Positions 17,363-46,016 of a stretch of 64,000 nt of DNA are shown here, piece by piece. Made by a program: the position numbers and the translations under genes. Origin of the DNA: Candidatus Dojkabacteria bacterium (lineage in GTDB: Bacteria > Patescibacteriota > Dojkabacteria > B142 > OLB20); contig DAOMOX010000001.1 in the NCBI GenBank assembly GCA_035444565.1, positions 59,987 through 123,986 of the forward strand. Direction: 5' to 3'. The notes under the pieces were generated by a model, which saw only the letters and a program-made list of their open reading frames with translations, was not told the origin of the DNA and made no database searches. Numbering within the stretch: position 1 is the first letter of the stretch; each line of letters starts with the position of its first letter.

Positions 17363-17425
17363 TTTTGCTTTCGGGAGTATTACTTTTATGTTGCAAAAAG
17401 TCAAGAAAAAAGTAATACTCCGCCC
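17363..17425. promoter_or_regulatory. Bidirectional palindromic late-promoter-like element (TTGCAA-N16-TAATACTCCGCCC going right; TTGACT-N16-TAATACTCCCG going left)
   Basis: 14-bp perfect palindrome arms GGAGTATTACTTTT (17374-17387) and AAAAGTAATACTCC (17408-17421). The element sits immediately before the TerL ATG. The same motif is found at 42786-42820 and 45983-46016. Confidence 0.55.
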
Positions 17426-19873
17426 ATGAAATCAAATACATACACTTACAAAGAGTTAATGATAGAAACAATTCGCAGGAGAAGAGAGGAAAAATATAGG
17501 TTTTATGAACCCATTGGTAAGGTTGAGGAGTTTCTTAATAATTTTGGTTCATGTGATTTTTTTGTTTCTGTGCTGAGTGCCGCTAATGGTGTTGGCAAAA
17601 CTACTTTAATAGGGAATATATTAGCTAATCTATTCTATCCGAATAAGAACTCATACTTTCATCAGAAATTGTTTCAAGATTATCCTTTCTCATTAAAGCG
17701 TGGAAGGATAGTTTCTGAACCTACTACCATCAAAGAAACGATTATACCTATGTTAGAGGAGTGGTTAATTCCTGGTACCTACAAGCGTGAAAAAATGGGA
17801 AAGAATTACTACTACCATTGGGAGGTAGAGGGAGGATGGGTTTTCGATATTATGAGTTATGATCAAGCGGTTAAAGAGTTTGAATCTATTACTTTAGGAT
17901 GGTGTCTCTTTGACGAACCACCGCCTGAACCAATTTATAAAGCCACAGTATCACGTATGAGGCGTGGGGGTATCATTGGTATATTTATGACCCCTCTAGC
18001 AGGTTCAGCCTGGATTTATGATGATATTATTGCTAATCAGAACAATGATGAGGGAGAGAGATACTGGAGTACAGCAGAGATGGAGGACGCTTGTTTTCCT
18101 TTATGGATGGAAGTGTTAACAAACCAAGGTTGGAAAAGTTTTAATGATATAGATATCAAAATTGATAAGTATGCAAGTGTAGATTCATTTAATAATAGAT
18201 TCAGCTTCAAAAAATCAACTAGGTTGGTAGAGAAAACCGCTAATGAATTATGCTATCTCAATAGTGGAATTACCTGCACACCAGATCATGACTTTCCCGC
18301 AATTAGAGATGATGGGAAAATACATAGAGTTAAAGCATCACAACTATACAGGGGAAACAAATTACTAACAAGATCTAGAATACACTCCGATAAACTAAAT
18401 TATTCTCCTGATGAAAGGTTTACACCTCTGCAATGGGCAGAGTTTTTAGGGTGGTATATCTCCGAGGGATGCGCTGAAGGGTCAAAGAGTGGAAATAACC
18501 AACACAATCAAGTAATAATTTCTCAAACAAATAAAAGACTCGAACTAGAAACTTTCCTAAATTCTCTCCAGATAGGGTTTAAAAGTAAAAAATCAGGCGA
18601 TAATTGGATATGTGATGAAAAACTTCATCAAATACTTTCACCACTAGGAACAGCAAGAGATAAATATTTACCTTCATATGTGTTTGAAGGGGATTATGAT
18701 TACAGGCATAGACTCCTCGACTCGTTAATAATGGGAGATGGAGATGAGAACGATACTGCATATAGATATAGGACATCTTCAGAAAGATTATCAGACGATA
18801 TACAAATCCTTGCTATGAGTTTAGGTTACAGAACAACAATTACATATCAATCTAATAGGGAAAGATATATTAAAGGTAAAAAACTTCCAGCTATAGGTGG
18901 TGTTTACACTATACGAATACTAAAAAGTAATAAAAACATTTATATTGAAAGAAAACCAGAAATACATACCACAGAACCACAAAAAGTGCGGTGTGTAACA
19001 GTCGAGGATGGCTACATCTTTGTTCGTAACCCGATAGAGAAAGTACCAGTAATAGCAGGGAATTGTATTGAGCATGGAGTTAGAGGTTTCCTACAACACA
19101 AAGATATTGAAAGGATTGTAAATCAGTTCAGCGAGGAAGATAAACAAGCTAGGGTAAAGGGACAATTCCAGCATTTAACAGGCTTAGTATTCAAACAATT
19201 CCAGCCACAAATCCATGTAATAGAACCTTTCGATATAGATATATATAACTATGTAGTAGTGGAGGCACTAGATACTCATCCACGAGTTCCAGATGCTTTG
19301 CTTTATGTAGCAATAAACGAGCAGGGACAGCACTTTGTTATAGATGAATCCTTCGAGAATAACACAACATCACAACTTGCTTTCAAGATTAAACAAAAGA
19401 GGTCTAACTACAGAGTGGTGAAGAAACTTATTGAACCAGCCGCATTTAACCAGGACCAGCATAGAGATTTAAGACAAGGACAATATGCATCCTTAGCAGA
19501 TGAGTTGTATTACGAACATGGATTAGACTTTGAGGCAGGTAGTAAAAGAAGATTAGATGCCATCAAAAGGATTGGGGACTATTTATCCTATCAGAAAGTC
19601 GGGGACCAGTTCATTACATCCCCTAATCTATATATCTTTAGTAGTTGTACGAGATTGAAGTATGAAATTCAGCACTACTTATGGGATGAGTGGAGAGGTA
19701 AGTCGGCTGAATATAGGTCTAAAAAAGAAACACCAATGGACAAGGATGACCACTTGATAGAGGATTTGGGTAGGGTTCTATTAGAGAACGTTCAATTCAC
19801 ACCATATGTTAAGCCATCTTCAATGGACAATAATTCTATTTCTTATAATTCAGATCCATATGCCAAAGTCTAA
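17426..19873 (+). CDS. terL: Terminase large subunit (TerL) interrupted by an intein
   Basis: N-terminal ATPase with Walker A 'AANGVGKTT' and Walker B 'WCLFDEPPP'. C-terminal nuclease region after the intein. The exteins together are ~491 aa, a typical TerL size. Confidence 0.85.
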   Translation: MKSNTYTYKELMIETIRRRREEKYRFYEPIGKVEEFLNNFGSCDFFVSVLSAANGVGKTTLIGNILANLFYPNKNSYFHQKLFQDYPFSLKRGRIVSEPTTIKETIIPMLEEWLIPGTYKREKMGKNYYYHWEVEGGWVFDIMSYDQAVKEFESITLGWCLFDEPPPEPIYKATVSRMRRGGIIGIFMTPLAGSAWIYDDIIANQNNDEGERYWSTAEMEDACFPLWMEVLTNQGWKSFNDIDIKIDKYASVDSFNNRFSFKKSTRLVEKTANELCYLNSGITCTPDHDFPAIRDDGKIHRVKASQLYRGNKLLTRSRIHSDKLNYSPDERFTPLQWAEFLGWYISEGCAEGSKSGNNQHNQVIISQTNKRLELETFLNSLQIGFKSKKSGDNWICDEKLHQILSPLGTARDKYLPSYVFEGDYDYRHRLLDSLIMGDGDENDTAYRYRTSSERLSDDIQILAMSLGYRTTITYQSNRERYIKGKKLPAIGGVYTIRILKSNKNIYIERKPEIHTTEPQKVRCVTVEDGYIFVRNPIEKVPVIAGNCIEHGVRGFLQHKDIERIVNQFSEEDKQARVKGQFQHLTGLVFKQFQPQIHVIEPFDIDIYNYVVVEALDTHPRVPDALLYVAINEQGQHFVIDESFENNTTSQLAFKIKQKRSNYRVVKKLIEPAAFNQDQHRDLRQGQYASLADELYYEHGLDFEAGSKRRLDAIKRIGDYLSYQKVGDQFITSPNLYIFSSCTRLKYEIQHYLWDEWRGKSAEYRSKKETPMDKDDHLIEDLGRVLLENVQFTPYVKPSSMDNNSISYNSDPYAKV
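18092..19063 (+). mobile_element. Intein (324 aa) with a LAGLIDADG homing endonuclease domain, inserted in TerL
   Basis: Block A starts with Cys ('CFPLWMEVLT'). Block B 'GITCTPDHDF'. LAGLIDADG motifs 'LGWYISEGCAEG' and 'LLDSLIMGDGDEN'. Block F 'VRCVTVEDGYIFV'. Block G 'VPVIAGN' is followed by the +1 Cys ('CIEHG'). Confidence 0.8.
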
Positions 19874-20084
19874 ATCACCTGAAAGAAAACTATTGAGTCA
19901 AAAAGAGTGTGTGATGAAGGTATCAATATATGAGGCTACATTAATCCTGGAATTAAGGAAACTGAGTTTTGGGAATGTAACTATTTATAAAAACATGGGA
20001 GAACCTTTCAGAATTAATCTAAATCAATCTAAGAACCTTAATATAGATGAGGCGGTTAAATCAGAAGATGTACAAATACTCTAA
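19860..20084 (+). CDS. hypothetical small protein
   Basis: This ORF overlaps the TerL 3' end. A start at 19860 or 19914 is possible. Confidence 0.3.
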   Translation: MPKSKSPERKLLSQKECVMKVSIYEATLILELRKLSFGNVTIYKNMGEPFRINLNQSKNLNIDEAVKSEDVQIL

Positions 20085-20113
20085 AATACAATTTTATTTA
20101 TTAGGACAATACA

Positions 20114-20506
20114 ATGCAATTTACAAATTCAGAGGGGAAATACATAGACCTGGAAAGATTCGTATGGATAGCCTTCTACAACGATAACACTTCACTAAGT
20201 CAATTCGATACAGATACTCAAGCGTATCACTACTTCAGAGAGATTGAACAATCTAAACTCATTGTATTTAGGATATTAGATACTTCTAATAATCAGACAT
20301 ACGACCTACAGTTTGACCCTTCAACAATGAAACTAATTCACTTCTATAGAACGTTAGTTGTAAAAGGTGCATCTACAACCCAAATAAGATTAACTTGTTT
20401 TGGATACGAAACAAAGCAAGGGGCAGTAATAAACGTTCTACTTCCCGATGGTAGATTAATCACTACAAATAACAAGGATTTCCATATTAATTTACAGGTT
20501 ATATAA
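20114..20506 (+). CDS. hypothetical protein
   Basis: 130-aa ORF. Its stop overlaps the start of the next gene. Confidence 0.45.
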   Translation: MQFTNSEGKYIDLERFVWIAFYNDNTSLSQFDTDTQAYHYFREIEQSKLIVFRILDTSNNQTYDLQFDPSTMKLIHFYRTLVVKGASTTQIRLTCFGYETKQGAVINVLLPDGRLITTNNKDFHINLQVI

Positions 20507-20507
20507 A

Positions 20508-23500
20508 GTGGCAGTAGTAATAACACAAACAGCCAATCCAGCAGGAGTTAACACATCCTCAAATGTAGCCACATACTCTAGCGTAGCCATTGGAGCTGCG
20601 GCAGCGAATAGAATAGTAGTAGTCTTGGTTGGCTCTGAATTAGCCTCAGCCTCGATAAACTCCGTAACGCTTGGTGGAAACGCCATGAGTGCTGGTACTC
20701 AGGGCAATTTTGGTGCAGTATACGCAAGAGCATTCTATTTAGCCTACCCAACAGGAACGACTGCCGACATCGTTGTTACTTACGGAGCAGGGGCAACAAG
20801 CACACAAAACCATATTGCAGTATATAGCGTAACTGGTGGGGTTTATTCTGCTACTGGAGCAGACCAGTCTAGCGATATGGACACAACCGATAGGCTAACT
20901 ACTGGTGCAATAACAATAGCCTCAGGTGGGGGGTTTATTGCAATTGCGGCAGGTGCTACTGATACTGCTGCCAAGACGTGGGCAAATGCTACTGAGGACC
21001 TTGACGTGGATGCGGGGGGTTTTAGGTTTACGACAGCTACTAGGACAACCGCTCTTACCGCTACTGCGGTTACGTGTACTGGTGGTACTAACGGAGAGGA
21101 TGGTGCATTATCTTATCTCCTCTTTACTGCAAATGTTTCCCCAACAGTTGCACTTAACAGTCCAGCAGATACTGCTACAATAACAGACACTACTCCCGAA
21201 TTGATATTCACAGGAACGGATACTGAGAGTAACGATATAAGGTATAACGTGCAGGTGGATACGGTTAATACGTTTGATAGCCTAGGTGGTGCTGAAGATG
21301 CCCTGTACCTAAATGATAATGGAAACCTAAACGCCTCACCTCTTTCAACTTATACCAACGGAATGTCTTTCTTTTGTTGGGTTCAATTAGAAACATTAAG
21401 TAGGTATCATTTAATATGGTCGAATGGTAGAGGTGGCGACTATGGGGAGGGGTATGAATTTTATATTACGTCTGGTGACAACTCTCTTATCATAGGGTTA
21501 TCCTATATTGGTGGTCATAGCTCTTCATTGTCCATAACAGATACAGATTGGCATTTTGTGGGTTTTACAAGAAATTCTGGTACGTGGACACTATATCTTG
21601 ATGGGTCGTCAGAGGTTGTTGGGACTGGAAACCCATACTCTATAAATGGTGCGAATTCCAAAAGTATGATAGGTGGTTACAATGATGCAGGGACACCTGT
21701 TAGTGAGTTCAAGGGTTCTATTGCTAGGGTTGGATATTGGGAAAGAGTTCTAAGTGGGGGGGAAATAGCAGGCCTTTACGCAGGTGCGTTAGTTTCAACG
21801 CTTTCCTCTAACTTGGTAATTGACTGCCAACTAGATGATAGTGCCAATTTTGGTGTTAATGATGGCTCTGCTGGGGACTTCACAGAAAGTGGTACTTTAA
21901 CAGAGGACACGCTTGGCTTTGATGCAGTAGGCGGTGGACCGTTAATTGATGCAGTCTCTGGTACAGATGCGGGGTTTCTGGACTCACCCGATGAAAGTGA
22001 TACAGACCCTTTCACCTCTGGAACTGCAGTTGCCTATACGGTTCAGTCGGCACTTGACCCCGATACTTATTATTGGAGGGTAAGAGGGCTTGACCCATCA
22101 GGTAGTAATTCGTATGGAGCATGGAGTTCTATTAGGAGCTTTACTATTACATCTGGAGAAACTGAAGTATCAATTACCAAAACCCTTGCATACAAAGTAC
22201 AACCATCAGTCTCTATTACTAAAACCATCGCTTATAGAATTAAAACGGATACTGCCATCACAAAGAATTTGGCTTATAGCATAGTAGATGAAATCTCAAT
22301 AACAAAAGGATTAACGTATGAAGTTATTGTAACCACAACGGAAACAATCCAAAAGGATGTTGACTACACAATTATTACCGATAGCTCAATTCAGAAAGGA
22401 TTAGAATACCAAGTTGTAACAAACGCACAAATACAGAAGGACCTGGATTATTTCATCAAGCTAGAAACATCTATTCAGAAGGATTTAGATTATACAATCC
22501 TTACCTCTGATAGTGTAGTAAAGGACCTGGAGTATATTATCATCATTACTGATAGTATAAACAAAGACCTGGACTATACAGTCCTTACGGAAGGATTAAT
22601 ACAGAAGAGTATGCTTTATGAGGTTGTGGTTACTGGAATTGAGAAGGTACAGGCAACGCTTGACTATACAGTAATTACAAGTACAACAATCCAAAAGGAC
22701 CTAGAGTATTTCATCACTACAGAAGGATTAATACAAAAAGACTTATCCTATAAAGTACAACCCTCAACAACAATAACAAAAGATTTAACTTATACAGTTG
22801 AATCTCAGCAGGATGTTACAAAAGACCTTGATTATCATATAGTAATTCCTAAACTTATACAGAAGGATGTAACTTACTTTATAAAAGGTTCTACAGGTAT
22901 TCAGAAAGATGCTGATTATTCGGTTATAACTACCATCGACCAGGACAAGGCATTAGATTATAGAGTCATAACTGAGGGTGATATACAAAAGGATGTAGAC
23001 TACTACATATCAATCACCACGAACGTAGAGAAAGATATCAATTATAACTTGCAAGTAAGTACAACTATTCAGAAGGGAGTTACCTACTCTATCGATGTCC
23101 CCTCAATAATAGTTCAGAAAGAACTTGACTATGCAATAGTAACAACAACAAGCACAACAACCGACCTTGATTATAATATTCTGCTTGAAAGCACTATTCA
23201 GAAAGATACTGATTATTCGGTTATGGGTAGTACAGCAATAACGAAAGGAATTGAGTATACAGTCATAGCACCACAATCAATTGAACAAGCCCTTCAGTAT
23301 ACAATCGCCATCACACCATCAGCTCTAGAGAAAGCACTTGAATATATCATTGTACAAAGGACCACTAAACAATATGAGTTGAGATATAGGGTAGATGCAC
23401 CTCATAGCATTTCTAAGGATTTAATGTATACTATCGGCGAAAAAATAGGGATATGGATAAAACATCCTGGAGAAAGTTCAGACTCATTCACAAAAGATGA

Positions 23501-23627: not shown

Positions 23628-23643
23628 CTCTTAAAATAAAATA

Positions 23644-25730: not shown

Positions 25731-25795
25731 AAAGGTTCAAAAGTATTTGAAAGTCTTTAGGACTGTTAAGGACTGTTAAGGACAACTTACAAAAC

Positions 25796-28464: not shown

Positions 28465-28473
28465 TATGTAAAA

Positions 28474-30862: not shown

Positions 30863-33800
30863 CTATTTCTTACTTTTGTTTTTATAACGAGTTTTAGTCC
30901 TATCTTTAGACCACTCTGCAAAATCTCTAGGATAATACTTAGGGTTTTCCAAACCTTCAACATTAGTTAGTATTTTTGACCGTAATTTGGAAGCCTCCTC
31001 TTGATTCTTCTCAATATCAACTTCCCTAAACTCATCTAACAAGTCGTCTACATCGTCCGTAATTGCTTTTATCCTATATATTTCTTTGATTTCTGGTTCT
31101 GTAATGTTTTCGTACTCTCCCCTATGATTTTGAACCGAAGAATATTTTTTATCATTCTCGTCACGAGTGTTATAAAAGTCTGTAATTCTTCTATCAGACG
31201 TCAACCAATAATCTCTCTGGAAAGATGTTAAAGGATTCAAATTTTCGGGTTGACCCATCAGCATTTTACTTGCACGTCCGAATGTTCCTGTAACAAAATA
31301 GTCAATCTTAATTGGGCTGAGGTTCATCATTTCGCCCAATTTTTTAGCCAAAGGTGTTGTACCTTCATTATATTGTTCGGCATTTGGTCTGTTGGATAAT
31401 CCCTGATTAACTAGAGGTCTCACTTCTGGATACTCTTTTACATTAAAAATTACATGTGTTGTAGGTTTAAAGAATTGTGGGACCCATGCTAGTGCTGCCT
31501 TAGTAGGTTCTGCTAAATTAAACTGATCTGGAATCCACGAAGTAACTAAATCTATATACTCATCAGAGTCATACTTTGTGTCAAACATAGCTTCGGAAAC
31601 TATCATGTTTAGGACCGTAGCAGGGATTGTAATTGGAGTAGGAACCCTAAATCGCCACAATCCTTTTCCAGAAGGATTGGGGAAATATATAAAGTTTGCT
31701 AACTCCTCAGGTGCCAAACCTTTATACTGTTCTTTCTGATCGTCTGATGAGTTTCTAAATAAGTAATCTAATGAAGCTAGATAGGCTGCCATTAACACTA
31801 GACCTACAAACATTATGCGTTTTCTCCCACCAGGAGTTTTAGAAACTCTTGCAAGTTGATCCAATACTTGAAGACTTGCATTAAAGAACGGAAGTCCTCG
31901 TATATAGACCGCTCCAGTAATATCAGATGATGTACTTCCCCACACACCTGTGTGATGAAAAGGTGCCGTTACACGACCTGCTTCTTCTAATGCAACTACT
32001 TGAGATTTACCTGCTTTTCTAGCTGCAACATACTCAGCAGCCCTTGTAATAATCTCACTAGCAGAAGCTGGTTTCTGTAGAATATCAAGCGCCTTAGACC
32101 CAATTAAGGTGGCTTTATCTATAAGGCTTTTCTCTGATTTAATTTTCTCAAACAACTGACTTGGTGACATTTTTTGCCAACCCATGAAGGTTTGTCTTTC
32201 ACCCCCCATTACTAGGTATTCCTCATAATACTTTGACTCAATACTATTCTTGTTGATTTTTTGTTTAATATATGTACTAAAAGGACTATAGAGGGGAATG
32301 AATTTATTGTATGAGTTCACAGATGCAGTCACCTGGTCCATGAAAAAGTTGGTTATAGTAAATGGAACAAAAGCTCCAGTAGTACCTAAAGTGAACATCC
32401 TAGAAACTGCGAGATACAATTTACTGAACTTACCAATCGATTTATAATCAAGGATATCATCTATTATTGTTTTAACCTCTTTGTTAACCAAAATAGGTTG
32501 TCTCTTGTAATTCAGTCTTGCCATTATTATGTTTGGATCTTTCTCTTGCGGATATGTTACCTTCTCGGAGCTTTTATCATAGAGAATTTTTAATTCTTGT
32601 TCCTGGAAGATATTCGGAATTGCCGCTGAACTACCAAGACCCCCTATGCGGTTATATACAACCTGTCTCATAGACTTCCTGACTATTTCCGAATGGTTAA
32701 TCATGGAGGAGTAAATAGGATTAATGATAGTTCTCTCTGATCCTGTTCTTCTCATAAGAGATGAAATCTTGGTCTTTTTAACCTTACTAGTTGAGGGGAT
32801 GTCTGTTTCTCCAACCAACTCATCATAAAACTGTCTTTTGAATGATGCGTAACCTTGGGTGTTGTTAAGTTTATCGAAAGTTGCTTTGTCTATTAGTTGG
32901 ACTTCTGGGTTGTGTAATAATTCTAAATCAGCCTTAACTAGTGAATCAAACATTTTCTCCTCATATTTATATGCTTCAGAGTTCTGTTTATAGGCATCGT
33001 CTACAACCTGTCGTGAGAAACCATCATTATCAAGTACAGACTTAAACTCTTCATATTCTTTTTCTAGTTTTTGTAATAACCTATTGGTCTCTCTTTTAAA
33101 GCGCTCAAGGTTCATGGCGGTATACTCGGGCTTACCATTTTTGATGGTACTAGGGATTATTTCAATCCCATAATCTTCCTCTAACATGGACTTTAAATCC
33201 CTGTTAAATCTAGATAACTTATTAGGCTCGGTTATTTTATTTAGTGCCTTAACAATCACCTCTAGTTGACCTTTTCTGTTCCCTAATAGATCTAACTCTT
33301 TGTACAGAAAGTGCTGTCTTCTAGCTACTAAATAATATCCAAAACTATCAGCTCTGTTATTCTTTTCTAATCTGTCTATTAAAGTCTTCCAATTATATTC
33401 ATATTTCTTTTGAAAACCCGATTCTAAGTCTGTAAATGCCCAATACCCACGTTTAGTAGAGATATTATTTCCAACTATTCCATTTACTGCCGAATATGCC
33501 CTTGCCCATAAAGATGGATCAATCGACTTATTATCAATCCCCGCTTTCTTGGCTATAACCTCTAATGGATACACCTTATCTGCTAATTGTTGCCTCAACC
33601 TTTCTTGTGAGGTGAAGAAGCTCTTGCGATCTATTCCAGTATCATCACTAGAAACTCTCGTTCCAATCTTATCTAACGACTCCAGACCTTGATAATCTGC
33701 TACTAATTGGTTTAAATCTTCTAACATTTTCCCAATTGTGGGTTCATAGTATTCTCCCTTTGGTTTAAGAAACTCATTAACTAGTAAAGGATATTCTGTC

Positions 33801-36800
33801 TCTGTAGTCGTAGGAAACTCGACATACTTCTGTAGTAATGTTGCAAACCCTTCTAATTGCTTTAATCTTGGATTATGCCCTGCCTCAGCTCCTGGATAAT
33901 ATTGTAGATAAATCTTTGATAGTTCTTTGTTTAATTCTGGCTTACTTAGATGTACTGTAATTTTGTATTTTGCATCTAAATAATGGGTGAATTCATGAGC
34001 AAACACCGATAAACTATTAATTGAATCGACACGAATGTTTTTTGTAGAAGGATAATACACGCCTAATGCGCCCCTAGGAAGGTATTTCTCACCAACCGTG
34101 AAGTCTTTATCGTATGATTTAAGCAGACTCTGAATCCTCTGGTATATTTTAAACTCCCTAGTCCCTGGCTTGGGCGATTCCCTTAATTCATACTCATCAA
34201 TTGAGGTGGTCCCTTTAGATTTTAGACTAGATATGGTGGCATATCCTTGTCCCCCTCGTACTTTCTCCCCTCTCTGTTTGCCTGTCTCCTTGCCTCTAGT
34301 TCCCTCTGTGAATTCTCTCTCCCTATTCTCAACGACTCCACCAGTTCGGGTGGAAGAGGAGGTTCTTGATTTCTCCTGAATATTTTGTTTAGTAGTTCTT
34401 TCATTGTTGTTATTACTATCTATGCTAATATTTTTTTGCCCTCCCTTTTCATTTTCTCTAGATACTTCCTTCTTCTCTCCTTGCCCTTTTCGATTCCTTC
34501 GTTCATCGCCTTGATTATGTAATTCTCCCTGCCTTCCCTGTCTTCCCAAGAGGGCATCGAGTTGTTTTTTTGTAATTCTTCCTGATTCATATAATTGTTC
34601 TGCATAACTAGCTATCTGATTAATTAAAGTTTTTTTATTGAAGGGGATTTCCTTTATATATTTAACGTCTAGCCTATGAACTCCTTGCATATTCTCCCCA
34701 TTATTTGTAAACATAATGTTTACATTTTCATTTTTCCCGTAATCTTCAAATAATTTTAAGATTACCATCCTTGCTTTTCTATGAGAATTAATGTGATTAC
34801 TTATAGTGACAGTTCTTGGAGTTCCACTTTCATACCTTGCCATAACTCCATCCTTAAATGCCACAAAAGGTTCTCTGTATACATAAAGGATATCGGTCTT
34901 ATAACCTAAGTCTATGGCTTTATCAATATAGCTTTTAGCCCTATTATAATCAGATAGCGTAGAATCATAAGTAATAGTATAATCATTTTTCAATCGTGAT
35001 TTTGAGGTTGTTTTGCCCGATCCTGTACCTCCTGCTAACATAAGTATGCTTTTGTCTTGTTCTTTACTTTTCTCTACTAGTAGTTTATTTAATACTTTAT
35101 CTGCTACTATTCCACTTGCTCTACCATAATCAACTGCATTGGTACGTTTATAACCATCGAATAAAAGTTTTGCACTATCGGAACTAACGTTATTTCCGAA
35201 CCTTTGAATATAGTTATCAACAATCTCGTCGGGGTTTTCCGATAATTGCTCAAAAGACTTTTTTTCGTCTTCGGATCGGAATTTCTCAGGAACTTCTATT
35301 TTCCCAACGTTATCTTCTTTGGGTGTCGACAATAAATTACCATTGGCTTGAACCCTTTTCTCATCTTCGGTTTCGACTGCGATACCCTCTGTTACTTCTC
35401 CTTCTGCCTGGTCCTCTCTTATTTTAGTGGTGATTATAGGGATTTCATTTATCTTTAGTTCTCCATATGCTTTTAAGCGATGATTTCCATCTTCTACCTC
35501 AAAGGTATTCGGTCCTGTAGGTCTAGCAACAATTGGTACTCTTTTACCGCTTTTAATCTCCTCAAGCGCCCTTTGCCCCCTTTCACTATCAAGAGATACA
35601 TTTTCACTTGATTTTATTTGTGTTCTATCTATTGTTCGCCTTTCAACATTATCAGGTCCGCCTATGTTATCAATCGCCTCTTTGAAAGTTCCTTTGCCTA
35701 TAAACTCATCCTCAAAATAACCCGATTCAGTATCATTGTATTCCTGGAATATATCTGATTCAGGGGTAACATCATTTCTCAAACTCTCTGTTACCTCTTG
35801 TACGTCATTCTCGACTGGACCACCCTCTAACTCATTCAATTCATTGATATCATAGTTCCCATCTTCAACACCTTCTGTTATCCCATCCCTAGCTATAAGA
35901 TCATCCATCCCGGCTATTTCATCTGACACACCTTCATCCACACTTATCTCATCCTCTTCAATACCTGCCTGATTTTCGTTCTGTAATAGTTCTATTTCTT
36001 CTCTTATTACTGAAGGTAAACTATCAGGAGGTATATTCTCTTCTTCATCAATGGGGATCTCGATAGGTCCAAATTCGGGTCTTTTTTCTCTCCACTTATA
36101 CCCGGCATTAACAGTTACCTCTGGAATCTTTACCAATCCCCCATACATACCAATCCCTATAATCTCCATCATTAATCTTTGCGCACCTTCCGGTGTAAGA
36201 AGAGAATGATATTGCCTATCTTCAATCTTGGCTTGTACCGGCTCATTGATTTCTTCTTCTAATATCTCCATTAAAAGCCCATCAAATCCACTCTTCTTGA
36301 GATACCTTGAGAATAAATCAATTGATTTGTTATTACTCTTCGAGATTGCCTTACCAATCAACGCCTTCTGCATGAACTTCTCCGGATTCTCTGTAATCAA
36401 TCCCATACGTTTAACAATTCCTTTATACGCTGCACTACCACCCTTTGTTGTTAAATCTCCGACACGTTCTGAAAAATGTTCAGCCCATGAAGATAGAAAT
36501 GCTTTCCTAAAAGCAACGTTAGGATCATCTCCCTTACTTGCTTCCTTCAGTAAAGCCTCTCCATCTTCACTCATCATTATTTCGTATTCGGGTAACGCAT
36601 ACCCGGCTGCCTTCTCTGATAGTGCCGGGAAATTGATTCCTGTTTGAACTGCTGATTCTGCTAACTCGCCTGTCAATTTCTGCATAAATGGTCCTGCGAT
36701 TCTCTTGGGTAGTATCTTTGTAACAGCCGGACCTATTTTAGTGGCACCTAAGGCACCTTTGGCTGCACCCTTTGTAATCAGAAATTCATATCCGTACCTA

Positions 36801-37696
36801 GCCATATCCGGCATCATCTCTCCGACTGCATAAGGAATACCCCTATCTATTCTAGAATCTATCATCTTGGCTGACATTAGATTCAATGCGGCAATTTCAG
36901 TCTTACTTAATACATCACCTCCATGATATTTCTCGGTTATTGCTTTGATATCTACCAATTCCCTTTCACCCTCTTCTAACTTCTCTAGTGCTTCTTTCGT
37001 GAGCTTATCCCTATCACTTTTCAATGTGTTATATCCAAAGGGTAGAAAACGGAGATCAAGGATTGATTCTTTTAATCCATCAAAGAATCCGGATTTAACA
37101 TCAGACCTATTAATAAACTTGTTGTACATTTCCGCCTCTTCACTAATCAACTGAAGATACTCATGATCTTCTTTCCTCTTCTTTCGTTTCTCTGGATCAA
37201 TTGTAGGAATAAAACCAGCCCATCTTTCCTCAAAGGTCATATTCTGGAACTCTTGATTAAGGAAATTCATCCTCTCTAGTACATAAGGACTCTTTGCTTC
37301 ATACACTTCCGGAGCATTATGATCTATCACCTTCTTCTGGTCGTTATACATCTTCTTTGCATACTTGACTCTATCCTTTGCTCCTTTAATGCTTAGAGGA
37401 TCCTTTAGAAGGACCTTCTTTGGATCCTTCTTGATCGCACTCTTTAGTTTGGAGAAAAAGCCCTCTTCAGGCTCCTCTTTTTTAGTTGAAGTTGATATGG
37501 GAGTTGTATCGGGAGCGGTCCATTTCTTAGGAGTTGTTGGCTCTACTGCCTTGTTATAAGTGCCATCTAAAATAGCATCAAATTGTTTCCTATCGAAACT
37601 GACTTGACGCATTTCTTCATCATCATCATTGTCATTTGTTTGAACTCCGGTAGATAATATCCTATCAAAGTCCTCCCTTGAGAATATCTTAGACAT
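30863..37696 (-). CDS. Giant polyvalent virion protein (2277 aa) with ParB-like nuclease, zeta-toxin-like P-loop kinase, low-complexity R/G/E linker, HExxH metallopeptidase and a long C-terminal region with a TM segment
   Basis: ParB nuclease (ParBc) 'KRVPIVARPTGPNTFEVEDGNHRLKA'. P-loop 'ILMLAGGTGSGKTTSKSRL' with a zeta/PNK-like downstream region. Linker 'RQGRQGELHNQGDERRNRKGQGEKK...'. Peptidase 'SVFAHEFTHYLD'. TM 'IMFVGLVLMAAYLASLDYL'. Confidence 0.7.
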   Translation of the reverse strand: MSKIFSREDFDRILSTGVQTNDNDDDEEMRQVSFDRKQFDAILDGTYNKAVEPTTPKKWTAPDTTPISTSTKKEEPEEGFFSKLKSAIKKDPKKVLLKDPLSIKGAKDRVKYAKKMYNDQKKVIDHNAPEVYEAKSPYVLERMNFLNQEFQNMTFEERWAGFIPTIDPEKRKKRKEDHEYLQLISEEAEMYNKFINRSDVKSGFFDGLKESILDLRFLPFGYNTLKSDRDKLTKEALEKLEEGERELVDIKAITEKYHGGDVLSKTEIAALNLMSAKMIDSRIDRGIPYAVGEMMPDMARYGYEFLITKGAAKGALGATKIGPAVTKILPKRIAGPFMQKLTGELAESAVQTGINFPALSEKAAGYALPEYEIMMSEDGEALLKEASKGDDPNVAFRKAFLSSWAEHFSERVGDLTTKGGSAAYKGIVKRMGLITENPEKFMQKALIGKAISKSNNKSIDLFSRYLKKSGFDGLLMEILEEEINEPVQAKIEDRQYHSLLTPEGAQRLMMEIIGIGMYGGLVKIPEVTVNAGYKWREKRPEFGPIEIPIDEEENIPPDSLPSVIREEIELLQNENQAGIEEDEISVDEGVSDEIAGMDDLIARDGITEGVEDGNYDINELNELEGGPVENDVQEVTESLRNDVTPESDIFQEYNDTESGYFEDEFIGKGTFKEAIDNIGGPDNVERRTIDRTQIKSSENVSLDSERGQRALEEIKSGKRVPIVARPTGPNTFEVEDGNHRLKAYGELKINEIPIITTKIREDQAEGEVTEGIAVETEDEKRVQANGNLLSTPKEDNVGKIEVPEKFRSEDEKKSFEQLSENPDEIVDNYIQRFGNNVSSDSAKLLFDGYKRTNAVDYGRASGIVADKVLNKLLVEKSKEQDKSILMLAGGTGSGKTTSKSRLKNDYTITYDSTLSDYNRAKSYIDKAIDLGYKTDILYVYREPFVAFKDGVMARYESGTPRTVTISNHINSHRKARMVILKLFEDYGKNENVNIMFTNNGENMQGVHRLDVKYIKEIPFNKKTLINQIASYAEQLYESGRITKKQLDALLGRQGRQGELHNQGDERRNRKGQGEKKEVSRENEKGGQKNISIDSNNNNERTTKQNIQEKSRTSSSTRTGGVVENREREFTEGTRGKETGKQRGEKVRGGQGYATISSLKSKGTTSIDEYELRESPKPGTREFKIYQRIQSLLKSYDKDFTVGEKYLPRGALGVYYPSTKNIRVDSINSLSVFAHEFTHYLDAKYKITVHLSKPELNKELSKIYLQYYPGAEAGHNPRLKQLEGFATLLQKYVEFPTTTETEYPLLVNEFLKPKGEYYEPTIGKMLEDLNQLVADYQGLESLDKIGTRVSSDDTGIDRKSFFTSQERLRQQLADKVYPLEVIAKKAGIDNKSIDPSLWARAYSAVNGIVGNNISTKRGYWAFTDLESGFQKKYEYNWKTLIDRLEKNNRADSFGYYLVARRQHFLYKELDLLGNRKGQLEVIVKALNKITEPNKLSRFNRDLKSMLEEDYGIEIIPSTIKNGKPEYTAMNLERFKRETNRLLQKLEKEYEEFKSVLDNDGFSRQVVDDAYKQNSEAYKYEEKMFDSLVKADLELLHNPEVQLIDKATFDKLNNTQGYASFKRQFYDELVGETDIPSTSKVKKTKISSLMRRTGSERTIINPIYSSMINHSEIVRKSMRQVVYNRIGGLGSSAAIPNIFQEQELKILYDKSSEKVTYPQEKDPNIIMARLNYKRQPILVNKEVKTIIDDILDYKSIGKFSKLYLAVSRMFTLGTTGAFVPFTITNFFMDQVTASVNSYNKFIPLYSPFSTYIKQKINKNSIESKYYEEYLVMGGERQTFMGWQKMSPSQLFEKIKSEKSLIDKATLIGSKALDILQKPASASEIITRAAEYVAARKAGKSQVVALEEAGRVTAPFHHTGVWGSTSSDITGAVYIRGLPFFNASLQVLDQLARVSKTPGGRKRIMFVGLVLMAAYLASLDYLFRNSSDDQKEQYKGLAPEELANFIYFPNPSGKGLWRFRVPTPITIPATVLNMIVSEAMFDTKYDSDEYIDLVTSWIPDQFNLAEPTKAALAWVPQFFKPTTHVIFNVKEYPEVRPLVNQGLSNRPNAEQYNEGTTPLAKKLGEMMNLSPIKIDYFVTGTFGRASKMLMGQPENLNPLTSFQRDYWLTSDRRITDFYNTRDENDKKYSSVQNHRGEYENITEPEIKEIYRIKAITDDVDDLLDEFREVDIEKNQEEASKLRSKILTNVEGLENPKYYPRDFAEWSKDRTKTRYKNKSKK

Positions 37697-37719
37697 AGTT
37701 GCAAATATAGATAAATCAA

Positions 37720-39659: not shown

Positions 39660-39677
39660 TTTGATTAGACATAATAA

Positions 39678-41063: not shown

Positions 41064-41135
41064 TTTGTTTTTGTTAATAAATAAGCTATTGGGTAGGGAT
41101 GAGATAACCCCATCCCTACCATCAATTAATAGTTA

Positions 41136-41675
41136 TTATTCTGCTGTTACGTCTCCAGGTGCCCATGCATCATCAAATCTACCTAGAAGTGATGCATTAC
41201 CTCCGAAACTTACATAAGTGTCGGTGATGTGAGCTGCATCAAGGTCATCTGAAGAGGCATCAAAAGCAGTTGCCCCTGCGGCAATTGCAATTCTCGCATA
41301 TCCTAAAGCTACCTTTCCTGAAGGTACTTCTGGTATTAATGCGTTTCCAGCTCCTTCAGCGATATCACCCATTACTAGAGTGATAGTTCCTGCTGAATCG
41401 GCAACTACAAGATATACTGCCTCTTGTACGCTTGATGCGTTAGCAGCTATATCATGAGTCGTTGCGGTGAAAGCTGTCTCTGCTCCAGTTACGGATACAA
41501 GTACACCATTTACACAAGCAACTGCTGTAGTAGTCTTAATTGTTTTCTTTGATGAAGTTCCAATAGCAACTACTGGATTTCCCAACATTCGATAGTTGAG
41601 TGCATCATGGAGTTGGTCCATGTAGTTCATTAAGGCTTGTTTATGCCCTACTATGTGGTTTGAGTTAATTTCCAT
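41136..41675 (-). CDS. hypothetical structural protein (179 aa, possible head decoration or fibre)
   Basis: Ala/Gly/Thr-rich ORF immediately downstream of the capsid gene. Confidence 0.4.
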   Translation of the reverse strand: MEINSNHIVGHKQALMNYMDQLHDALNYRMLGNPVVAIGTSSKKTIKTTTAVACVNGVLVSVTGAETAFTATTHDIAANASSVQEAVYLVVADSAGTITLVMGDIAEGAGNALIPEVPSGKVALGYARIAIAAGATAFDASSDDLDAAHITDTYVSFGGNASLLGRFDDAWAPGDVTAE

Positions 41676-41703
41676 AGTTAATTAATTAATAGTTAATAAA
41701 GTA

Positions 41704-42681
41704 TTATTCGTTAGAGTGTTCAACTCGGACCATAAACATCTCTTGAAGTCTAGTTACACCCATAGTTGCTTTCCAACCTGATGTACCTCTTTGATTCAAA
41801 GGATCTTCTGTACCTCCTGAACCTACTGGTTTGACAATGTTTTCCATTGCTCTACCTGATAGTCTCGAAACTCCGTATGCATCCATACCTAAGAATAGAG
41901 TTGAGTAAACATCAATACCTCCATTGCCTCCATCTTCAAAAACTTTAGCGTTTGTAGTTTCTACAAATCTAACCTCTTCAAATTTTCCAACTTCTCCTGG
42001 AAGTGGTTGTGAGTTCTGGTAGTATTTCTCTACTGGTTCAAACCCTGATACGCCTCTAAGGTTTAGAGTAGTTGTAGGATGGACCATAGCAACATAAGCT
42101 GAGGCTACTGGAGTAGTGTTGTAACCTCTATCTGCTGAAACGATTTTAGTAATCCTCTTTGCGTTCTGCATCTTCAAGGTCCAAATAGCGAGTCTTATTT
42201 CATCTGCAAGTAGTTTATCTCCAGTTGTAATGTCTGTTCTTTCATCATTAGCTTTAGGAGCTGTAACATCTGCATAGCGGATATTAGTTCCAGCATGTAA
42301 TACTTCTCTAATTATTAAATCAAGTGATTGTCCTGCTTGTTCTCCCAATACTTCTGCAGCCTCCATCAAAACGAGGTCTATTGAAGTATCTAGCGTGAAG
42401 TCATCTACAGTCATGTAATCACCATATTGTTTTATCTGAGTGGTTACATCAGTAACTGATAGTTGTTTACCTTCAGGAGTTACTCCAGGTGTTAGAGGAG
42501 TAGTGTTTGCTGATAATGCATTGTATTTTCTGAACTTGATAGTATCAGTATTATGCATTGGTAAATCTCTTACTTGTGCAAATCTATCATGTAAGAGTAA
42601 AGGTAAAGCCCTGCTCAATAGTTGTCTATCGTAGTATGTATTTACAGGGTAGGGAATGTTTGCTGTGGTGTTTAATGCCAT
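41704..42681 (-). CDS. Probable major capsid protein (HK97-fold family)
   Basis: ~325 aa. Lies after the portal and scaffold genes. N-terminus 'MALNTTANIPYPVNTYYDRQLLSRALPLL..DRFAQVRDLP' resembles phage coat proteins. The ORF could start at 42717; the ATG at 42681 is preferred. Confidence 0.55.
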   Translation of the reverse strand: MALNTTANIPYPVNTYYDRQLLSRALPLLLHDRFAQVRDLPMHNTDTIKFRKYNALSANTTPLTPGVTPEGKQLSVTDVTTQIKQYGDYMTVDDFTLDTSIDLVLMEAAEVLGEQAGQSLDLIIREVLHAGTNIRYADVTAPKANDERTDITTGDKLLADEIRLAIWTLKMQNAKRITKIVSADRGYNTTPVASAYVAMVHPTTTLNLRGVSGFEPVEKYYQNSQPLPGEVGKFEEVRFVETTNAKVFEDGGNGGIDVYSTLFLGMDAYGVSRLSGRAMENIVKPVGSGGTEDPLNQRGTSGWKATMGVTRLQEMFMVRVEHSNE

Positions 42682-42785
42682 TTGATTAAAGTAATAAATA
42701 AAAAATAAAGGGTACAAATAGTCTCTTCCCTAGAGATTAAATTATCTGTACCCAGTATTTCTGGTTAAGCTGTACCCAACTTATC

Positions 42786-42820
42786 GGGCGGAGTATTACT
42801 TTTTAGTTATAAAAAGTCAA
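42786..42820 (-). promoter_or_regulatory. Late-promoter-like motif upstream of the capsid gene (TTGACT-N17-TAATACTCCGCCC, minus orientation)
   Basis: Plus strand reads 'gggcggagtattactttttagttataaaaagtcaa'. Contains an 8-bp inverted repeat ACTTTTTA/TAAAAAGT. Confidence 0.5.
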
Positions 42821-43302
42821 TATCTTCCAGCGTTTTTTATTCTCATCTGATTAATTGTCTTTTCAAAATCCTCTTCTGAAAGGTCCCAGGCATTGCCTAG
42901 TTCATTTCCTTTGCTTGAAGAGTTGGACCCTTTGAAGAAGTCCCTATCTACATTAGATTGATTCGTATCTGCCATCTGCTTACCTATCTCTACTAATTCA
43001 GATGGACCTAATGCAATAGCTACAACTCTATCAATGGGTAGTGTTCTGTTCTCAGGTTTCATAGCCTCTTCAAGTATTTTATTAGCGTGTTTCTTGTATA
43101 CTTCATTTCCATCCTCAAGTAGGAAATCACTAACTTTATCCTTTGCTACTAGCCTTTCAACTCTATCATCGGGGTTGTCCTTGCCTTCAGGCTTTGTTTT
43201 ATCCCCTTTAGTTTCTGCCTTCTTCTCTTCAGGTTCGTTGTTCTCTTCTCCTTCTGCCTCTTCATCTAAGTCATCAAAAGGATCTTTGTAATCTTCATTC
43301 AT
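42817..43302 (-). CDS. Putative scaffolding protein (highly acidic N-terminal region)
   Basis: 161 aa with 'DPFDDLDEEAEGEENNEPEEKKAETKGDK'. Sits between the portal and capsid genes. Confidence 0.45.
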   Translation of the reverse strand: MNEDYKDPFDDLDEEAEGEENNEPEEKKAETKGDKTKPEGKDNPDDRVERLVAKDKVSDFLLEDGNEVYKKHANKILEEAMKPENRTLPIDRVVAIALGPSELVEIGKQMADTNQSNVDRDFFKGSNSSSKGNELGNAWDLSEEDFEKTINQMRIKNAGRY

Positions 43303-43331
43303 TGTATGAATATAAAAAATAAATTACCCAG

Positions 43332-43634
43332 TTAATCTGGTAGGTTATAATATGGGTCCAGGTAGTTTTTAATAGATGTTTTCTTATATTGCTTATCTAG
43401 TCTTACAACTTGTTCGGGTAGACTTATAAACCTAGTTAATTGCTCTATTAGTTTGGCGGTCCTTACTCTCTCTTCTCCTAGTTTCTGATAGTCTACAGAC
43501 TCTGGAATCACTAACAAATCCTTGTTGAGTTCCTCAATCGTATCCTCAATAACGGAAACAAGGTATTTCCATCCCTCAGTTGAGATTAGATTAGCAAAGT
43601 TTTCTACAATTACCTCTTGTTCCTTATGTATCAT
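43332..43634 (-). CDS. hypothetical protein (100 aa)
   Basis: ORF with a 4-nt overlap onto the portal gene. Confidence 0.4.
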   Translation of the reverse strand: MIHKEQEVIVENFANLISTEGWKYLVSVIEDTIEELNKDLLVIPESVDYQKLGEERVRTAKLIEQLTRFISLPEQVVRLDKQYKKTSIKNYLDPYYNLPD

Positions 43635-45559
43635 TGCATCATAAGTGCTTGGCTTATATTAGATGGAGCATCAGGGTTCAATTGTGCATTTATATTAGGT
43701 TCTCCTGGTTGTTGATTCTGTAATTCAGGGAATAATTCAGGCTTAGCTTTCTGAAGTGCCATTGCCGCCTTATGGGTTTCAATATGTGCAAACGTGGCGT
43801 TAGTTGCTTTAGCTCTTTCGTGTATCTCTATGTGAGCCATGTGGTCATCATTCGGTTTAACTGGAGCTTTCTTATTCTTATCGAGTAATTGATTCTCCTC
43901 TTCTGCCATCAACTCATCAGGAGATGGAGGGAGTAGTTTATTAATCTCAGTAACGCTATACCCTATGAGTTTATACATCTTCTTAGCTATATAGCGGTGA
44001 TTAGTTCCTGGATTTTGTGCAGTTGCTTTATAAACTGTAGCAAGTCTAGTTAGTTCCTTGTCTCTGATAGCCTCTGATAATATCTTAGATGTGATTGTTA
44101 TATTCGGGTCCGCCTTAGGAGTTATAAGTTCGTTCTTCTTGTATGTTTTCCAGTCAGAACCAAAAGCCGATTTAAGCTCTACCAATTTCTTAGAAGTATC
44201 AGGCATGTACTTGTGATACATGAAGTACCATGTTTTCCAGAAGTTCTTTTCTGATATCTCAAAGAATTTAGCTGTTAGAGAATATCTTACTCCAACTTTA
44301 GAGGCTACAAGGTTAATTTCTCCTAGAGTTTTATCCTGAGATGATGTTACGCCTTGTTGTGTTTCAGGCGTGGCTGTAGCTTTTTGAGCCGCCTCATCCA
44401 GTTGATTCATGATATATTCAACGACATTTACATTAGGGTAATCCTTTGGAAGGGCTACTACAGCCCCTACAGGGTCGTGTTTTATTCCAGTTTTCTTATT
44501 TAAGCCAAAATCTAGCTCTTTTGGATTAGTTATCTTAGTTTCATTGTATAAGTAATGAGGGTATATCGAGTGTTGTATGCTATCTAGAGTTGCATTTTGT
44601 GTAATTGCTCTAGCCCTTTGCTTATCCTCAATCAAGTCAGGAATAGATACTCCATCCCAGTCTCTACTCATTTTAGATGATGGACGATCTACAGCTAACC
44701 AACTAGCCTGGTTCTTAGCTACAGAATACTTAACAACATCTGCAAAATCATTAGTGGTAACAACTAAACATTTCTTTCCGTTAAAGTGTGTATGCCATTT
44801 GATAAGTTGAAACGATTCATTATCTCCAAATTCAGGACCCTCTTTAGAATCATTCTGAGTATTTTGAGCATCAGCTCTAGCCCTTCTAGCCTCTTCTATT
44901 CCTGAATCATGCTTGATTGATGTTTGAATAATTCTATCAATGGATGCATAGCGGTCCTTCTCTAATTCCCTTTTGGTAATTTCTACATCCTGCCCCCAGA
45001 ACCTACAACCACGTGAAGTTGAACTATCATTAAATGCACTTGCTTTAGGGTCCCTATAGAATACAAGGGGGTCTATTACCTGGACCTCAGGAGTATTAGT
45101 TTTGGTATCGAATCCTACAAACTCAACCATACCTCTACCAAAGAAAAGGGAATCAAATATCCAATCATAATTAATCTCAGCCATCCCCATTTCATCAAAA
45201 TCATATCGGGCGATATGGTTCAAGTTCTCAGCTTGTGTGTCATCTCCAGTCTCATGTCCTGAAAACTCTACTTGCATTTGGTCGTTATACAAACTAGCTA
45301 TAACAGTCATGAAGATTGTATATAGCAAAGGGTCCCCGAACTTATCTTCATCCCTCTTTTGGTTATTGAAAAGGGAAAGTCTCATTCCCCATACTTTTTT
45401 CTTGTGGAGTAAATAGTTTCTAGAGGTATCGTATTCTGCCTCAACTTGTTTTAATAATCGTTTAGTCTCTTCAGGAGTAAGGGGAATATCCCCTCCGCTT
45501 GTGTCTTGTTCCTGGAACTCTACCTTCACTTGCTCATTGGTTATTTTATTTTTTGGCAT
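43631..45559 (-). CDS. Portal protein
   Basis: 642 aa, directly downstream of TerS. Size, charge pattern and position fit a podovirus portal. No single diagnostic motif. Confidence 0.6.
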   Translation of the reverse strand: MPKNKITNEQVKVEFQEQDTSGGDIPLTPEETKRLLKQVEAEYDTSRNYLLHKKKVWGMRLSLFNNQKRDEDKFGDPLLYTIFMTVIASLYNDQMQVEFSGHETGDDTQAENLNHIARYDFDEMGMAEINYDWIFDSLFFGRGMVEFVGFDTKTNTPEVQVIDPLVFYRDPKASAFNDSSTSRGCRFWGQDVEITKRELEKDRYASIDRIIQTSIKHDSGIEEARRARADAQNTQNDSKEGPEFGDNESFQLIKWHTHFNGKKCLVVTTNDFADVVKYSVAKNQASWLAVDRPSSKMSRDWDGVSIPDLIEDKQRARAITQNATLDSIQHSIYPHYLYNETKITNPKELDFGLNKKTGIKHDPVGAVVALPKDYPNVNVVEYIMNQLDEAAQKATATPETQQGVTSSQDKTLGEINLVASKVGVRYSLTAKFFEISEKNFWKTWYFMYHKYMPDTSKKLVELKSAFGSDWKTYKKNELITPKADPNITITSKILSEAIRDKELTRLATVYKATAQNPGTNHRYIAKKMYKLIGYSVTEINKLLPPSPDELMAEEENQLLDKNKKAPVKPNDDHMAHIEIHERAKATNATFAHIETHKAAMALQKAKPELFPELQNQQPGEPNINAQLNPDAPSNISQALMMQ

Positions 45560-45941
45560 TTTTTAGATCTTTTAATAATTCTTCTAGTTCTTTATCAGTC
45601 ATAGTTTTTAGTTCATCTGTAGGGTCCGCCCTCTTTATCTCTTGTAGGTCCCTCCAACCAAATCTATTTTTCATATTGAAAATCCAAACTGTAGCATTTA
45701 GTTTTACATCTTGTGGTCCGCCTAGAATATAATCAATCCCTAATCCTTCCCAAAACATCCTACATTGCACTTCCCCTTCTTTTATGGCATCTGAAAACTC
45801 TCTATGAATTTTCACCCATCTATACAAAGTATCTGCTGTAATATGTAAAGAACCTGCAACTGCCTCTTTAGAATAACCCTTACTCATCAAGTCTACGACT
45901 TTCTTACAATAGGCTTTTTTGTATTTAGTAGGTCTAGCCAT
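45546..45941 (-). CDS. terS: Terminase small subunit (TerS)
   Basis: 131 aa. N-terminal HTH 'ARPTKYKKAYCKKVVDLMSKGYSKEAVAGSLHITADTLYRWVK' is typical of the P27-family TerS. Immediately upstream of the portal. Confidence 0.7.
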   Translation of the reverse strand: MARPTKYKKAYCKKVVDLMSKGYSKEAVAGSLHITADTLYRWVKIHREFSDAIKEGEVQCRMFWEGLGIDYILGGPQDVKLNATVWIFNMKNRFGWRDLQEIKRADPTDELKTMTDKELEELLKDLKNAKK

Positions 45942-45982
45942 CTCATAGAATTAGAGTTACGAGTTTGATTCTCAATTTTCGT

Positions 45983-46016
45983 GGGAGTATTACTTTTTTT
46001 TGAGGCGATTGTCAAA
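45983..46016 (-). promoter_or_regulatory. Late-promoter-like motif upstream of terS (TTGACA-N17-TAATACTCCCACG, minus orientation)
   Basis: Plus strand reads 'gggagtattacttttttttgaggcgattgtcaa'. Confidence 0.5.

Follow-up and report, generated by a model that had tools for sequence, protein, structure and literature searches.

We analysed a 64,000-nucleotide stretch (the window) of the chromosome of an uncultured, ultra-small Candidatus Dojkabacteria bacterium of the Candidate Phyla Radiation (assembly GCA_035444565.1, contig DAOMOX010000001.1, forward-strand positions 59,987 to 123,986). This chromosome carries a prophage, flanked by genes for ATP-synthase proteins identical to ones that NCBI assigns to Dojkabacteria, and our subject is a short sequence repeated ahead of the late genes of that prophage. 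The rightward late operon opens with TerL and continues with lectin-like and tail proteins as far as 29702; a leftward operon diverges from it. A second minus-strand block holds, in this order, terS, an SU10-type portal, two small genes, an N4-gp56-type capsid and an adaptor, and continues with a 2277-residue polyvalent protein and one further gene, to 29815. The early region (46.0-53.4 kb) encodes a replication initiator, RecT, YopX and small proteins of no assigned function.

The 14-mer AAAAGTAATACTCC was found in exactly four perfect copies, one on the plus strand (17408-17421) and three on the minus strand (17374-17387, 42790-42803 and 45984-45997). All are intergenic and each is oriented toward the first gene of a late block; the units headed in this way (4/4) are the TerL and tail genes, the divergent leftward operon, the capsid-to-tail genes and terS with the portal. 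In 100 dinucleotide-preserving shuffles the chance expectation was 0.10 matches at one mismatch or fewer, and none of the shuffles reached five. The initial annotation, made from the letters alone, had proposed a promoter-like motif ahead of four late genes and had named random or intragenic occurrence as what would speak against it; the exact copies proved to be neither random, as judged by the shuffles, nor intragenic. The bidirectional palindrome that it had described at 17.4 kb was also recovered, as an inverted repeat whose 20-nt arms (17374-17393 and 17402-17421) are 90% complementary and lie 8 nt apart. A copy with one mismatch (AAAACTAATACTCC) lies inside the portal gene; as its -35 element is weak and it is absent from the related phage described below, we treated it as probably a chance occurrence.

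From their sequence, the four sites read best as sigma-70-type promoters with an unusual -10 element and a G+C-rich discriminator that starts with CC (Table 1). A neutral consensus scan (TTGACA-N16-18-TATAAT-like) independently picked three of the four, as TTGACx-N17/18-AATACT. The -10 had at first been taken as TAATAC; AATACT with a spacer of 17-18 nt fits better, and since the related phage has CATACT, this register is the sole fit. The late -10 matches TATAAT at four of six positions, without the T at -12 and with C instead of A at -8. Other details of the first description held in part. The TTGAC-like hexamer assigned to each copy is present at three of them, whereas the TerL copy has TTGCAA, and the GTCAA beside it belongs to the -35 of the opposite promoter. 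Likewise, the supposedly invariant CTCC(G)CCC applies to the TerL and capsid copies, where GCCC follows TAATACTCC, but not to the leftward copy (CGAA) or the terS copy (CACG). Transcription is predicted to start at about 17369 for the leftward operon (ATG at 17345), at about 42785 for the capsid gene, where the -35 overlaps the stop codon of an upstream 161-residue gene, and at about 45979 for terS (ATG at 45941).

Comparative evidence for these assignments came from a sister phage, one lineage among about 1,600 capsid homologues, represented by contigs L008 and L173; its capsid is 75% and its TerL 79% identical to that of the prophage. TTGACA/TTGCAA-N17/18-CATACTCC stands at each of the four orthologous places in this phage (TTGACA three times, TTGCAA once; spacers of 17, 17, 17 and 18 nt). 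The spacers and flanks of the two phages are unrelated in sequence; what has been kept is the -35 box, the spacing, (A/C)ATACTCC and then four G+C-rich bases. All eight sites have a -10 of AATACT or CATACT, in which position 2 is always A and position 6 always T. This conserved footprint would correspond to the contacts expected of an RNA polymerase holoenzyme, namely the -35, the -10 (A at -11, T at -7) and the discriminator. In contrast to these shared parts, the hexamer AAAAGT just 5' of the -10 is common to the four copies of this phage only. A position-weight matrix built from the eight sites gave scores of 23-28.6 to the four sites of the window (27.0 for TerL), the next best hit being intragenic at 14.4, and no fifth site emerged. 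The best score per shuffle ranged from 0 to 23.6 over 20 shuffles; because one shuffle reached 23.6, we relied on the exact 14-mer count and on orthologous conservation, not on the matrix score. Position, architecture and orthologous conservation together make the promoter interpretation well supported at the level of sequence.

We then compared the late sites with other promoters of the window. Three promoters lie in the early region, a divergent pair and one before the replication gene (Table 1), and ten promoter-like sites directly 5' of host or island genes have TATAAT-like -10s; xATACTCC was found in none of these three early and ten host-type promoters. This comparison supports a promoter class limited to the prophage late genes, their late timing being presumed. 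CC directly after the -10 also occurs in three of the ten predicted host-type promoters and therefore may be a habit of the host, not a signature of the phage.

More distant relatives suggest how the class arose. In phages with about 50-60% capsid identity the orthologous capsid promoter is kept, immediately behind the stop codon of the preceding gene, in the form TTGACA-N16-18-TAnnnT, with -10s such as TACTAT, TACAAT, TAATAT and TATACT and with A/T-rich discriminators. Because these -10s are ordinary, the unusual -10 and discriminator appear to have been derived, in the two Dojkabacteria-associated lineages, from an ancestral promoter of the ordinary type. Relatives that are 97-100% identical differ by few substitutions, all outside the promoter cores and too few for footprinting. 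The 20-base composite motif matched only a 98%-identical copy of this phage in the viral collection, and in the metagenome collection it matched 14 loci, two from this phage and 12 unrelated. As these 12 are roughly the estimated chance number, a widespread mobile signal was rejected. In other metagenomic bacteria (L187, L188) this 20-base pattern precedes unrelated genes, consistent with its being usable by ordinary polymerases.

Taken together, these data make it probable that the four sites are late-unit promoters used by a host holoenzyme of RNA polymerase and the primary (sigma-70/sigma-A type) sigma factor. The holoenzyme would bind a consensus or near-consensus -35 (TTGACA, TTGACT or TTGCAA) and, 17-18 nt on, a weakened -10, AATACT, in which the two most important bases (A at -11, T at -7) are retained. 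With one promoter type in common, the packaging, head, tail and probably lysis genes would be switched on together. The non-consensus -10 and C-rich discriminator might make the promoters intrinsically weak or short-lived, and thereby dependent on a condition or factor of late infection. Profile and domain searches found no RNA polymerase or sigma family among the proteins of the phage and its sister, and no recognisable late activator was found among the phage proteins in Pfam and PHROG. A -35/-10 promoter architecture has been reported in Nanosynbacter lyticus, a cultivated member of the same radiation (PMC12641261). The sites resemble sigma-70/sigma-A promoters in their -35, their 17-18 nt spacer, a -10 with A2 and T6 and a start expected 7 nt on; they differ in having (A/C)ATACT, a G+C-rich discriminator beginning with CC in a genome of 36% G+C, and 14 identical nucleotides. 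Promoters of the Escherichia coli rrnB P1 type have a G+C-rich discriminator and short-lived open complexes, as described in the literature on sigma region 1.2 and the discriminator. The late sites share with them a C two positions past the -10 and, between this C and the start, a G+C-rich stretch. The rrnB P1 type, however, is controlled by host growth rate and has good -10 boxes.

Several points weigh against this interpretation. The four sites share 14 identical nucleotides, more than a sigma-70 promoter requires, and the non-consensus bases (A/C at -12, C at -8, CC at -6/-5) do not vary in either phage, so that an extra factor could be reading them. A good -35 with a usable -10 would also be expected to fire in the lysogen unless held down, and no such silencer was identified. 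Only about ten host-type promoters could be predicted in the window, leaving the host consensus poorly sampled, and we infer the polymerase, the transcription start points, the late timing and the weakness of the promoters alike.

The invariance of the non-consensus positions across eight sites in two phages speaks for a composite site, at which the host polymerase binds but a phage late factor (an activator, a sigma-remodelling protein or a promoter-loaded antiterminator) is required. Temporal control of late genes does need some switch, and candidate genes exist: a conserved 105-residue gene (46012-46329) immediately precedes the terS promoter, where rinA-type activators and lambda Q are also placed, and a helix-turn-helix (HTH) protein (48112-48471) is also kept in the sister phage, where the promoter of the HTH gene carries CATACT-T-CCGCAC, a sequence much like that of the sister capsid promoter. 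We nevertheless consider a composite site unlikely, and hold with the same reserve that its factor would read ATACTCC and the G+C-rich discriminator, together with AAAAGT in this phage. The hexamer AAAAGT is not kept in the sister phage. The shared part consists of bases contacted by polymerase, yet the two conserved small early proteins (the 105-residue and HTH proteins) are only 41-44% identical between the phages, and the footprint is therefore unlike that of a co-evolving phage DNA-binding protein. A consensus -35 also speaks against the common activators that replace a missing one. The claim in the initial annotation of a phage-specific late promoter or activator site thus survives as a promoter class limited to prophage late genes, while the need for a phage factor is unsupported.

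The 105-residue protein itself lends the composite site no support, although it might yet be a late regulator. A word search returned two close homologues and an exhaustive HMMER search of 1.8 billion representative proteins four relatives; AlphaFold gave a mostly beta model of low confidence (predicted local distance difference test score of 66 in one of five models only); no fold match was obtained, the best Foldseek E-value against PDB being 0.18; and no Pfam or PHROG regulator family matched. The late activators rinA, ArpU and Ltr of Gram-positive siphoviruses act on a promoter just before terS. The prophage has the same gene order (small gene, promoter, terS), but its 105-residue protein shows neither sequence nor fold similarity to them.

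A prophage or host repressor might instead cover the -10 and discriminator and silence the late promoters in the lysogen. The conserved block spans -18 to -5, a usual place for a repressor, the promoters look strong enough to need silencing, and the inverted repeat at 17.4 kb could be bridged by a dimer. Such an operator role is nonetheless highly improbable: the capsid and terS copies are lone half-sites with no partner nearby, the operator-like repeats of the sister early region (TGACATGTCA type) differ from the late motif, and conservation between the phages is confined to polymerase-contact positions.

Promoters of the T7 group (TAATACGACTCACTATAG) also contain TAATAC within a long motif repeated before late genes, and the capsid and portal families are common with N4- and SU10-like podoviruses, which together with the motif of at least 14 identical nucleotides could point to a single-subunit (T7-like) or virion-carried (N4-like) phage polymerase. 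We rejected this as extremely unlikely. No RNA polymerase domain was found in the proteins of either phage, including the 2277-residue protein; a TTGACA box, of which single-subunit polymerases make no use, is conserved at the right distance; and the sister phage changes TAATAC to ACATAC, GCATAC or TACATAC. Moreover, T7-group promoters are blocks of about 20 nt (-17 to +3) without a -35, whereas here the -35 is conserved and positions -18 to -13 are not kept in the sister. Although exact repeats can spread by recombination, there is next to no chance that the motif is a packaging or recombination site or a small mobile repeat without a transcriptional role, given its strict orientation to downstream genes, its strictly intergenic placing at operon heads, the -35/-10 register conserved around free spacers in the sister and the fixed distance to the TerL ATG.

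The host-polymerase reading makes specific predictions for the TerL region, where two of the promoters stand back to back with predicted starts 57 bp apart. Their -35 hexamers cross over, the TerL -35 (17391-17396) lying between the leftward -35 (17404-17399) and -10 (17381-17376), and this geometry, including the crossover, is kept base-for-base in register in the sister phage. As the -35s are interleaved and the binding sites overlap, one polymerase could occupy the region at a time, and the two late operons should therefore compete or alternate. The sole gene upstream of TerL runs the opposite way, so the TerL transcript must begin within the 80-nt gap. The TerL ATG stands 7 nt after the -10 in both phages (the six bases between being CCGCCC here and CCAGCG in the sister), no in-frame TerL start codon exists between the stop at 17345-17347 and 17426, and the TerL protein is conserved from Met1. 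Because the A of the ATG (17426) falls at the usual +1, this geometry predicts a leaderless TerL mRNA. Leaderless mRNAs are known from lambda cI transcribed from PRM and from many genes in Actinobacteria and Deinococcus. TerL resembles them in that its ATG falls on the predicted +1 in both of the diverged phages, which leaves no space for a ribosome-binding site. We know of no documented leaderless translation in Dojkabacteria.

The capsid promoter is followed by a structured leader. This leader (fold energy -27.9 kcal/mol, z = -4.3) contains a small hairpin, CCAG-AAAUA-CUGG, abutting a long hairpin and U-run that have the shape of an intrinsic terminator; the sister leader has CCGG-AAAAA-CCGG in the same place (z = -6.2). 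A stem of 3-4 bp with an AANNA loop, abutting a terminator-like hairpin, was found in at least 20 relatives with eight different stem sequences. In a test that did not select for the small hairpin, 30 of 155 distinct capsid leaders had a simple terminator-like hairpin. The abutting hairpin, its loop always AA..A, was present in 15 of these 30 (50%), compared with 5 of 600 shuffles (0.8%). Across 2.56 Mb of related loci, 27 of 3,008 terminator-like hairpins had a companion hairpin, 17 of them within 160 nt before a capsid gene. Rfam searches of the whole window (gathering thresholds) and of the capsid leader (E <= 10) yielded nothing beyond tRNA-His and noise. The terS leader is unstructured, and among the late-promoter copies only that of the capsid has such a leader; the downstream terminator-like hairpin is likewise absent at the terS and TerL sites.

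Because the capsid promoter lies 5' of the terminator-like hairpin, transcripts for the capsid, the most abundant virion protein, must pass through it. The arrangement suggests that read-through is regulated, in a form resembling lambda boxB/N or PR'-tR'/Q, and the leader might act in antitermination or attenuation; it might instead be a structure for stabilisation or processing. As in the lambda N/boxB nut site, the nascent RNA carries, between promoter and terminator, an A-rich pentaloop on a small stem. The loop, however, is AANNA and not GNRNA, the stem has 3-4 bp, and the gene is late here but early in lambda. No candidate for an N-like arginine-rich protein or a boxA turned up, though no search was aimed at them. 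In lambda, the Q gene precedes PR', and Q antitermination acts with the terminator tR'. The prophage resembles this system in the sigma-70-type promoter heading its late genes, the small gene just 5' of the terS promoter, placed like Q, and the terminator-like hairpin within about 90 nt of the capsid promoter; it differs in that such a hairpin follows just one of the four promoters, that no Q homologue was found and that the two phages have no Q-binding element in common. One could combine these elements into a previously undescribed two-part late switch of this phage family, with a phage factor acting on ATACTCC and the discriminator of all late promoters, the boxB-like hairpin against the capsid terminator serving as an antitermination site, and a leaderless TerL. 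We regard this combination as quite unlikely; if it were true, the capsid boxB-like hairpin would be controlled by a protein or an RNA.

What we describe is of a known kind, a co-ordinated set of phage late promoters of sigma-70 architecture, tidy and not surprising; its sequences point to a lineage-specific class that would be read by the host polymerase. Its added value lies in the little-studied host group, the predicted leaderless terminase message and the conserved capsid-leader RNA. To our knowledge, almost nothing is known of gene control by phages of the Candidate Phyla Radiation (Patescibacteria) or of promoter use in their hosts, because neither are easily grown. The locus supplies four precisely placed, comparable promoters with predicted starts (eight with the sister phage). 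Should the motif turn out to depend on a phage factor, it would define how this phage group switches on its late genes; otherwise it would provide a useful set of Dojkabacteria promoters for annotation and genetic tools.

Table 1. Promoters, leader elements and genes of the prophage and its relatives (positions in the window unless a contig is named)
Feature	Position	Strand	Details
TerL promoter	17391-17425	+	-35 TTGCAA 17391-17396; 17-nt spacer; -10 AATACT 17414-17419; discriminator CCGCCC 17420-17425
Leftward operon promoter	17370-17404	-	-35 TTGACT 17404-17399; 17-nt spacer; -10 AATACT 17381-17376; discriminator CCCGAA
Capsid promoter	42786-42820	-	-35 TTGACT 42820-42815; 17-nt spacer; -10 AATACT 42797-42792; discriminator CCGCCC
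terS/portal promoter	45980-46015	-	-35 TTGACA 46015-46010; 18-nt spacer; -10 AATACT 45991-45986; discriminator CCCACG
One-mismatch copy AAAACTAATACTCC	45090-45103	-	Inside portal gene; weak -35 TTGTAG
Sister terS promoter	L008		TTGACA-N18-CATACT-CCCGGC; ATG 9 nt past -10
Sister capsid promoter	L008		TTGACA-N17-CATACT-CCGCAC
Sister TerL promoter			TTGCAA-N17-CATACT-CCAGCG-ATG
Sister divergent-gene promoter	L173		TTGACA-N17-CATACT-CCGCCG
Divergent early promoter pair	48545-48517; 48634-48662	-; +	Both TTGACG-N17-TATATT
Promoter before replication gene	47219-47190	-	TTGACG-N18-TAGATT
Structured capsid leader, about 104 nt	42682-42785	-	Between capsid promoter and ATG 42681
Leader, 5' hairpin	42783-42766	-	
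Leader, small hairpin	42764-42752	-	CCAGAAAUACUGG
Leader, long hairpin	42753-42710	-	
Leader, U-run	42709-42697	-	Followed by A/U-rich stretch
Leader in relatives, with positions	L008 9876-10000; L176 6078-6212; L177 8706-8842		
Leader in further relatives	L053, L058, L059, L065, L067, L070, L071, L073, L074, L085, L086, L087		
Large serine recombinase gene	Adjoins tRNA-His	-	
TerL gene	17426-19873	+	First gene of rightward late operon; LAGLIDADG-type intein inside
TerL intein	18092-19063	+	324 residues; LAGLIDADG-type endonuclease
Leftward divergent operon	First ATG 17345	-	120-residue membrane-anchored protein, RusA, 389-residue coiled-coil protein
terS (small terminase)	45546-45941	-	phrog_309, E = 5e-24
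Portal, SU10-type	43631-45559	-	PF23899; follows terS
Major capsid gene, N4-gp56 family	41704-42681	-	phrog_1357, E = 4e-70

The borders of the prophage were set by comparison with prophage-free strains, no tRNA-end direct repeat of at least 12 nt that could mark a border having been found. In those strains similarity to the window breaks exactly at the 3' end of tRNA-His (13264/13265; core CCACCCCA) and returns near 58887. A 95-nt direct repeat occurs in two copies (53421-53515 and 58801-58895) that are 91% identical and both end in the core CCACCCCA; as this is the tRNA-His core, the insert consists of a phage of about 40.2 kb (13265-53515) and a second element of 5.4 kb. The second element (53516-58895) holds seven genes, including one for a NERD-like protein, in tandem with the phage at one site. 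At the other end, the serine-recombinase reading frame extends with its 3' end into the tRNA-His gene on the opposite strand (13200-13265).

Among 50,697 deposited phage genomes, none matched 24.7 kb of the prophage in a near-identity search. The nearest capsid relatives in named genomes are mostly binned with groups of the Candidate Phyla Radiation (Kerfeldbacteria, Parcubacteria, Patescibacteria, Gracilibacteria and Dojkabacteria; L094, L095, L100, L122, L159), and farther ones are Clostridia prophages. An intein-free TerL variant of 491 residues, 97% identical, is present in other samples, and in the relative L178 it is the portal gene that carries a LAGLIDADG insertion. The 2277-residue protein (30863-37696, minus strand), at the end of the head/tail operon, has Zeta-toxin and LPD38 (polyvalent-protein) domains and may be injected; its first ~640 residues are 49% identical to those of its counterpart in the sister phage.

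Other promoters of the window and of related phages showed sequence patterns of their own. In the sister phage, early promoters (L008 4432, 4863 and 5484) carry repeated TGACATGTCA / ACACGTCATG operator-like sequences, and its HTH-gene promoter combines such repeats with the late-type CATACT-T-CCGCAC; the likeness of this promoter to the capsid promoter is a hint of a link, not more. A phage of about 55% relatedness (L175 871, 3876 and 7189, minus strand; L011 6422) has three early promoters of the form TTGACA-N17-TAGTAT or TAATAT and, behind each of them, a conserved TTTTTTAGTGTGTAT block immediately ahead of the start codon. The host or island promoters at 9449-9476, 12512-12540, 58004-58032 and 60302-60331 have TATAAT (or TAAAAT) followed by CCnnATAT or TGTGATAT, a shared pattern that suggests a host-specific discriminator and start. 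Finally, the rightward early promoter is followed by a 52-codon hydrophobic open reading frame (48689-48847) and then, ahead of the RecT operon, by a terminator-like hairpin (48840-48861) with a T-run, so that this phage has two instances of a terminator placed behind a promoter.

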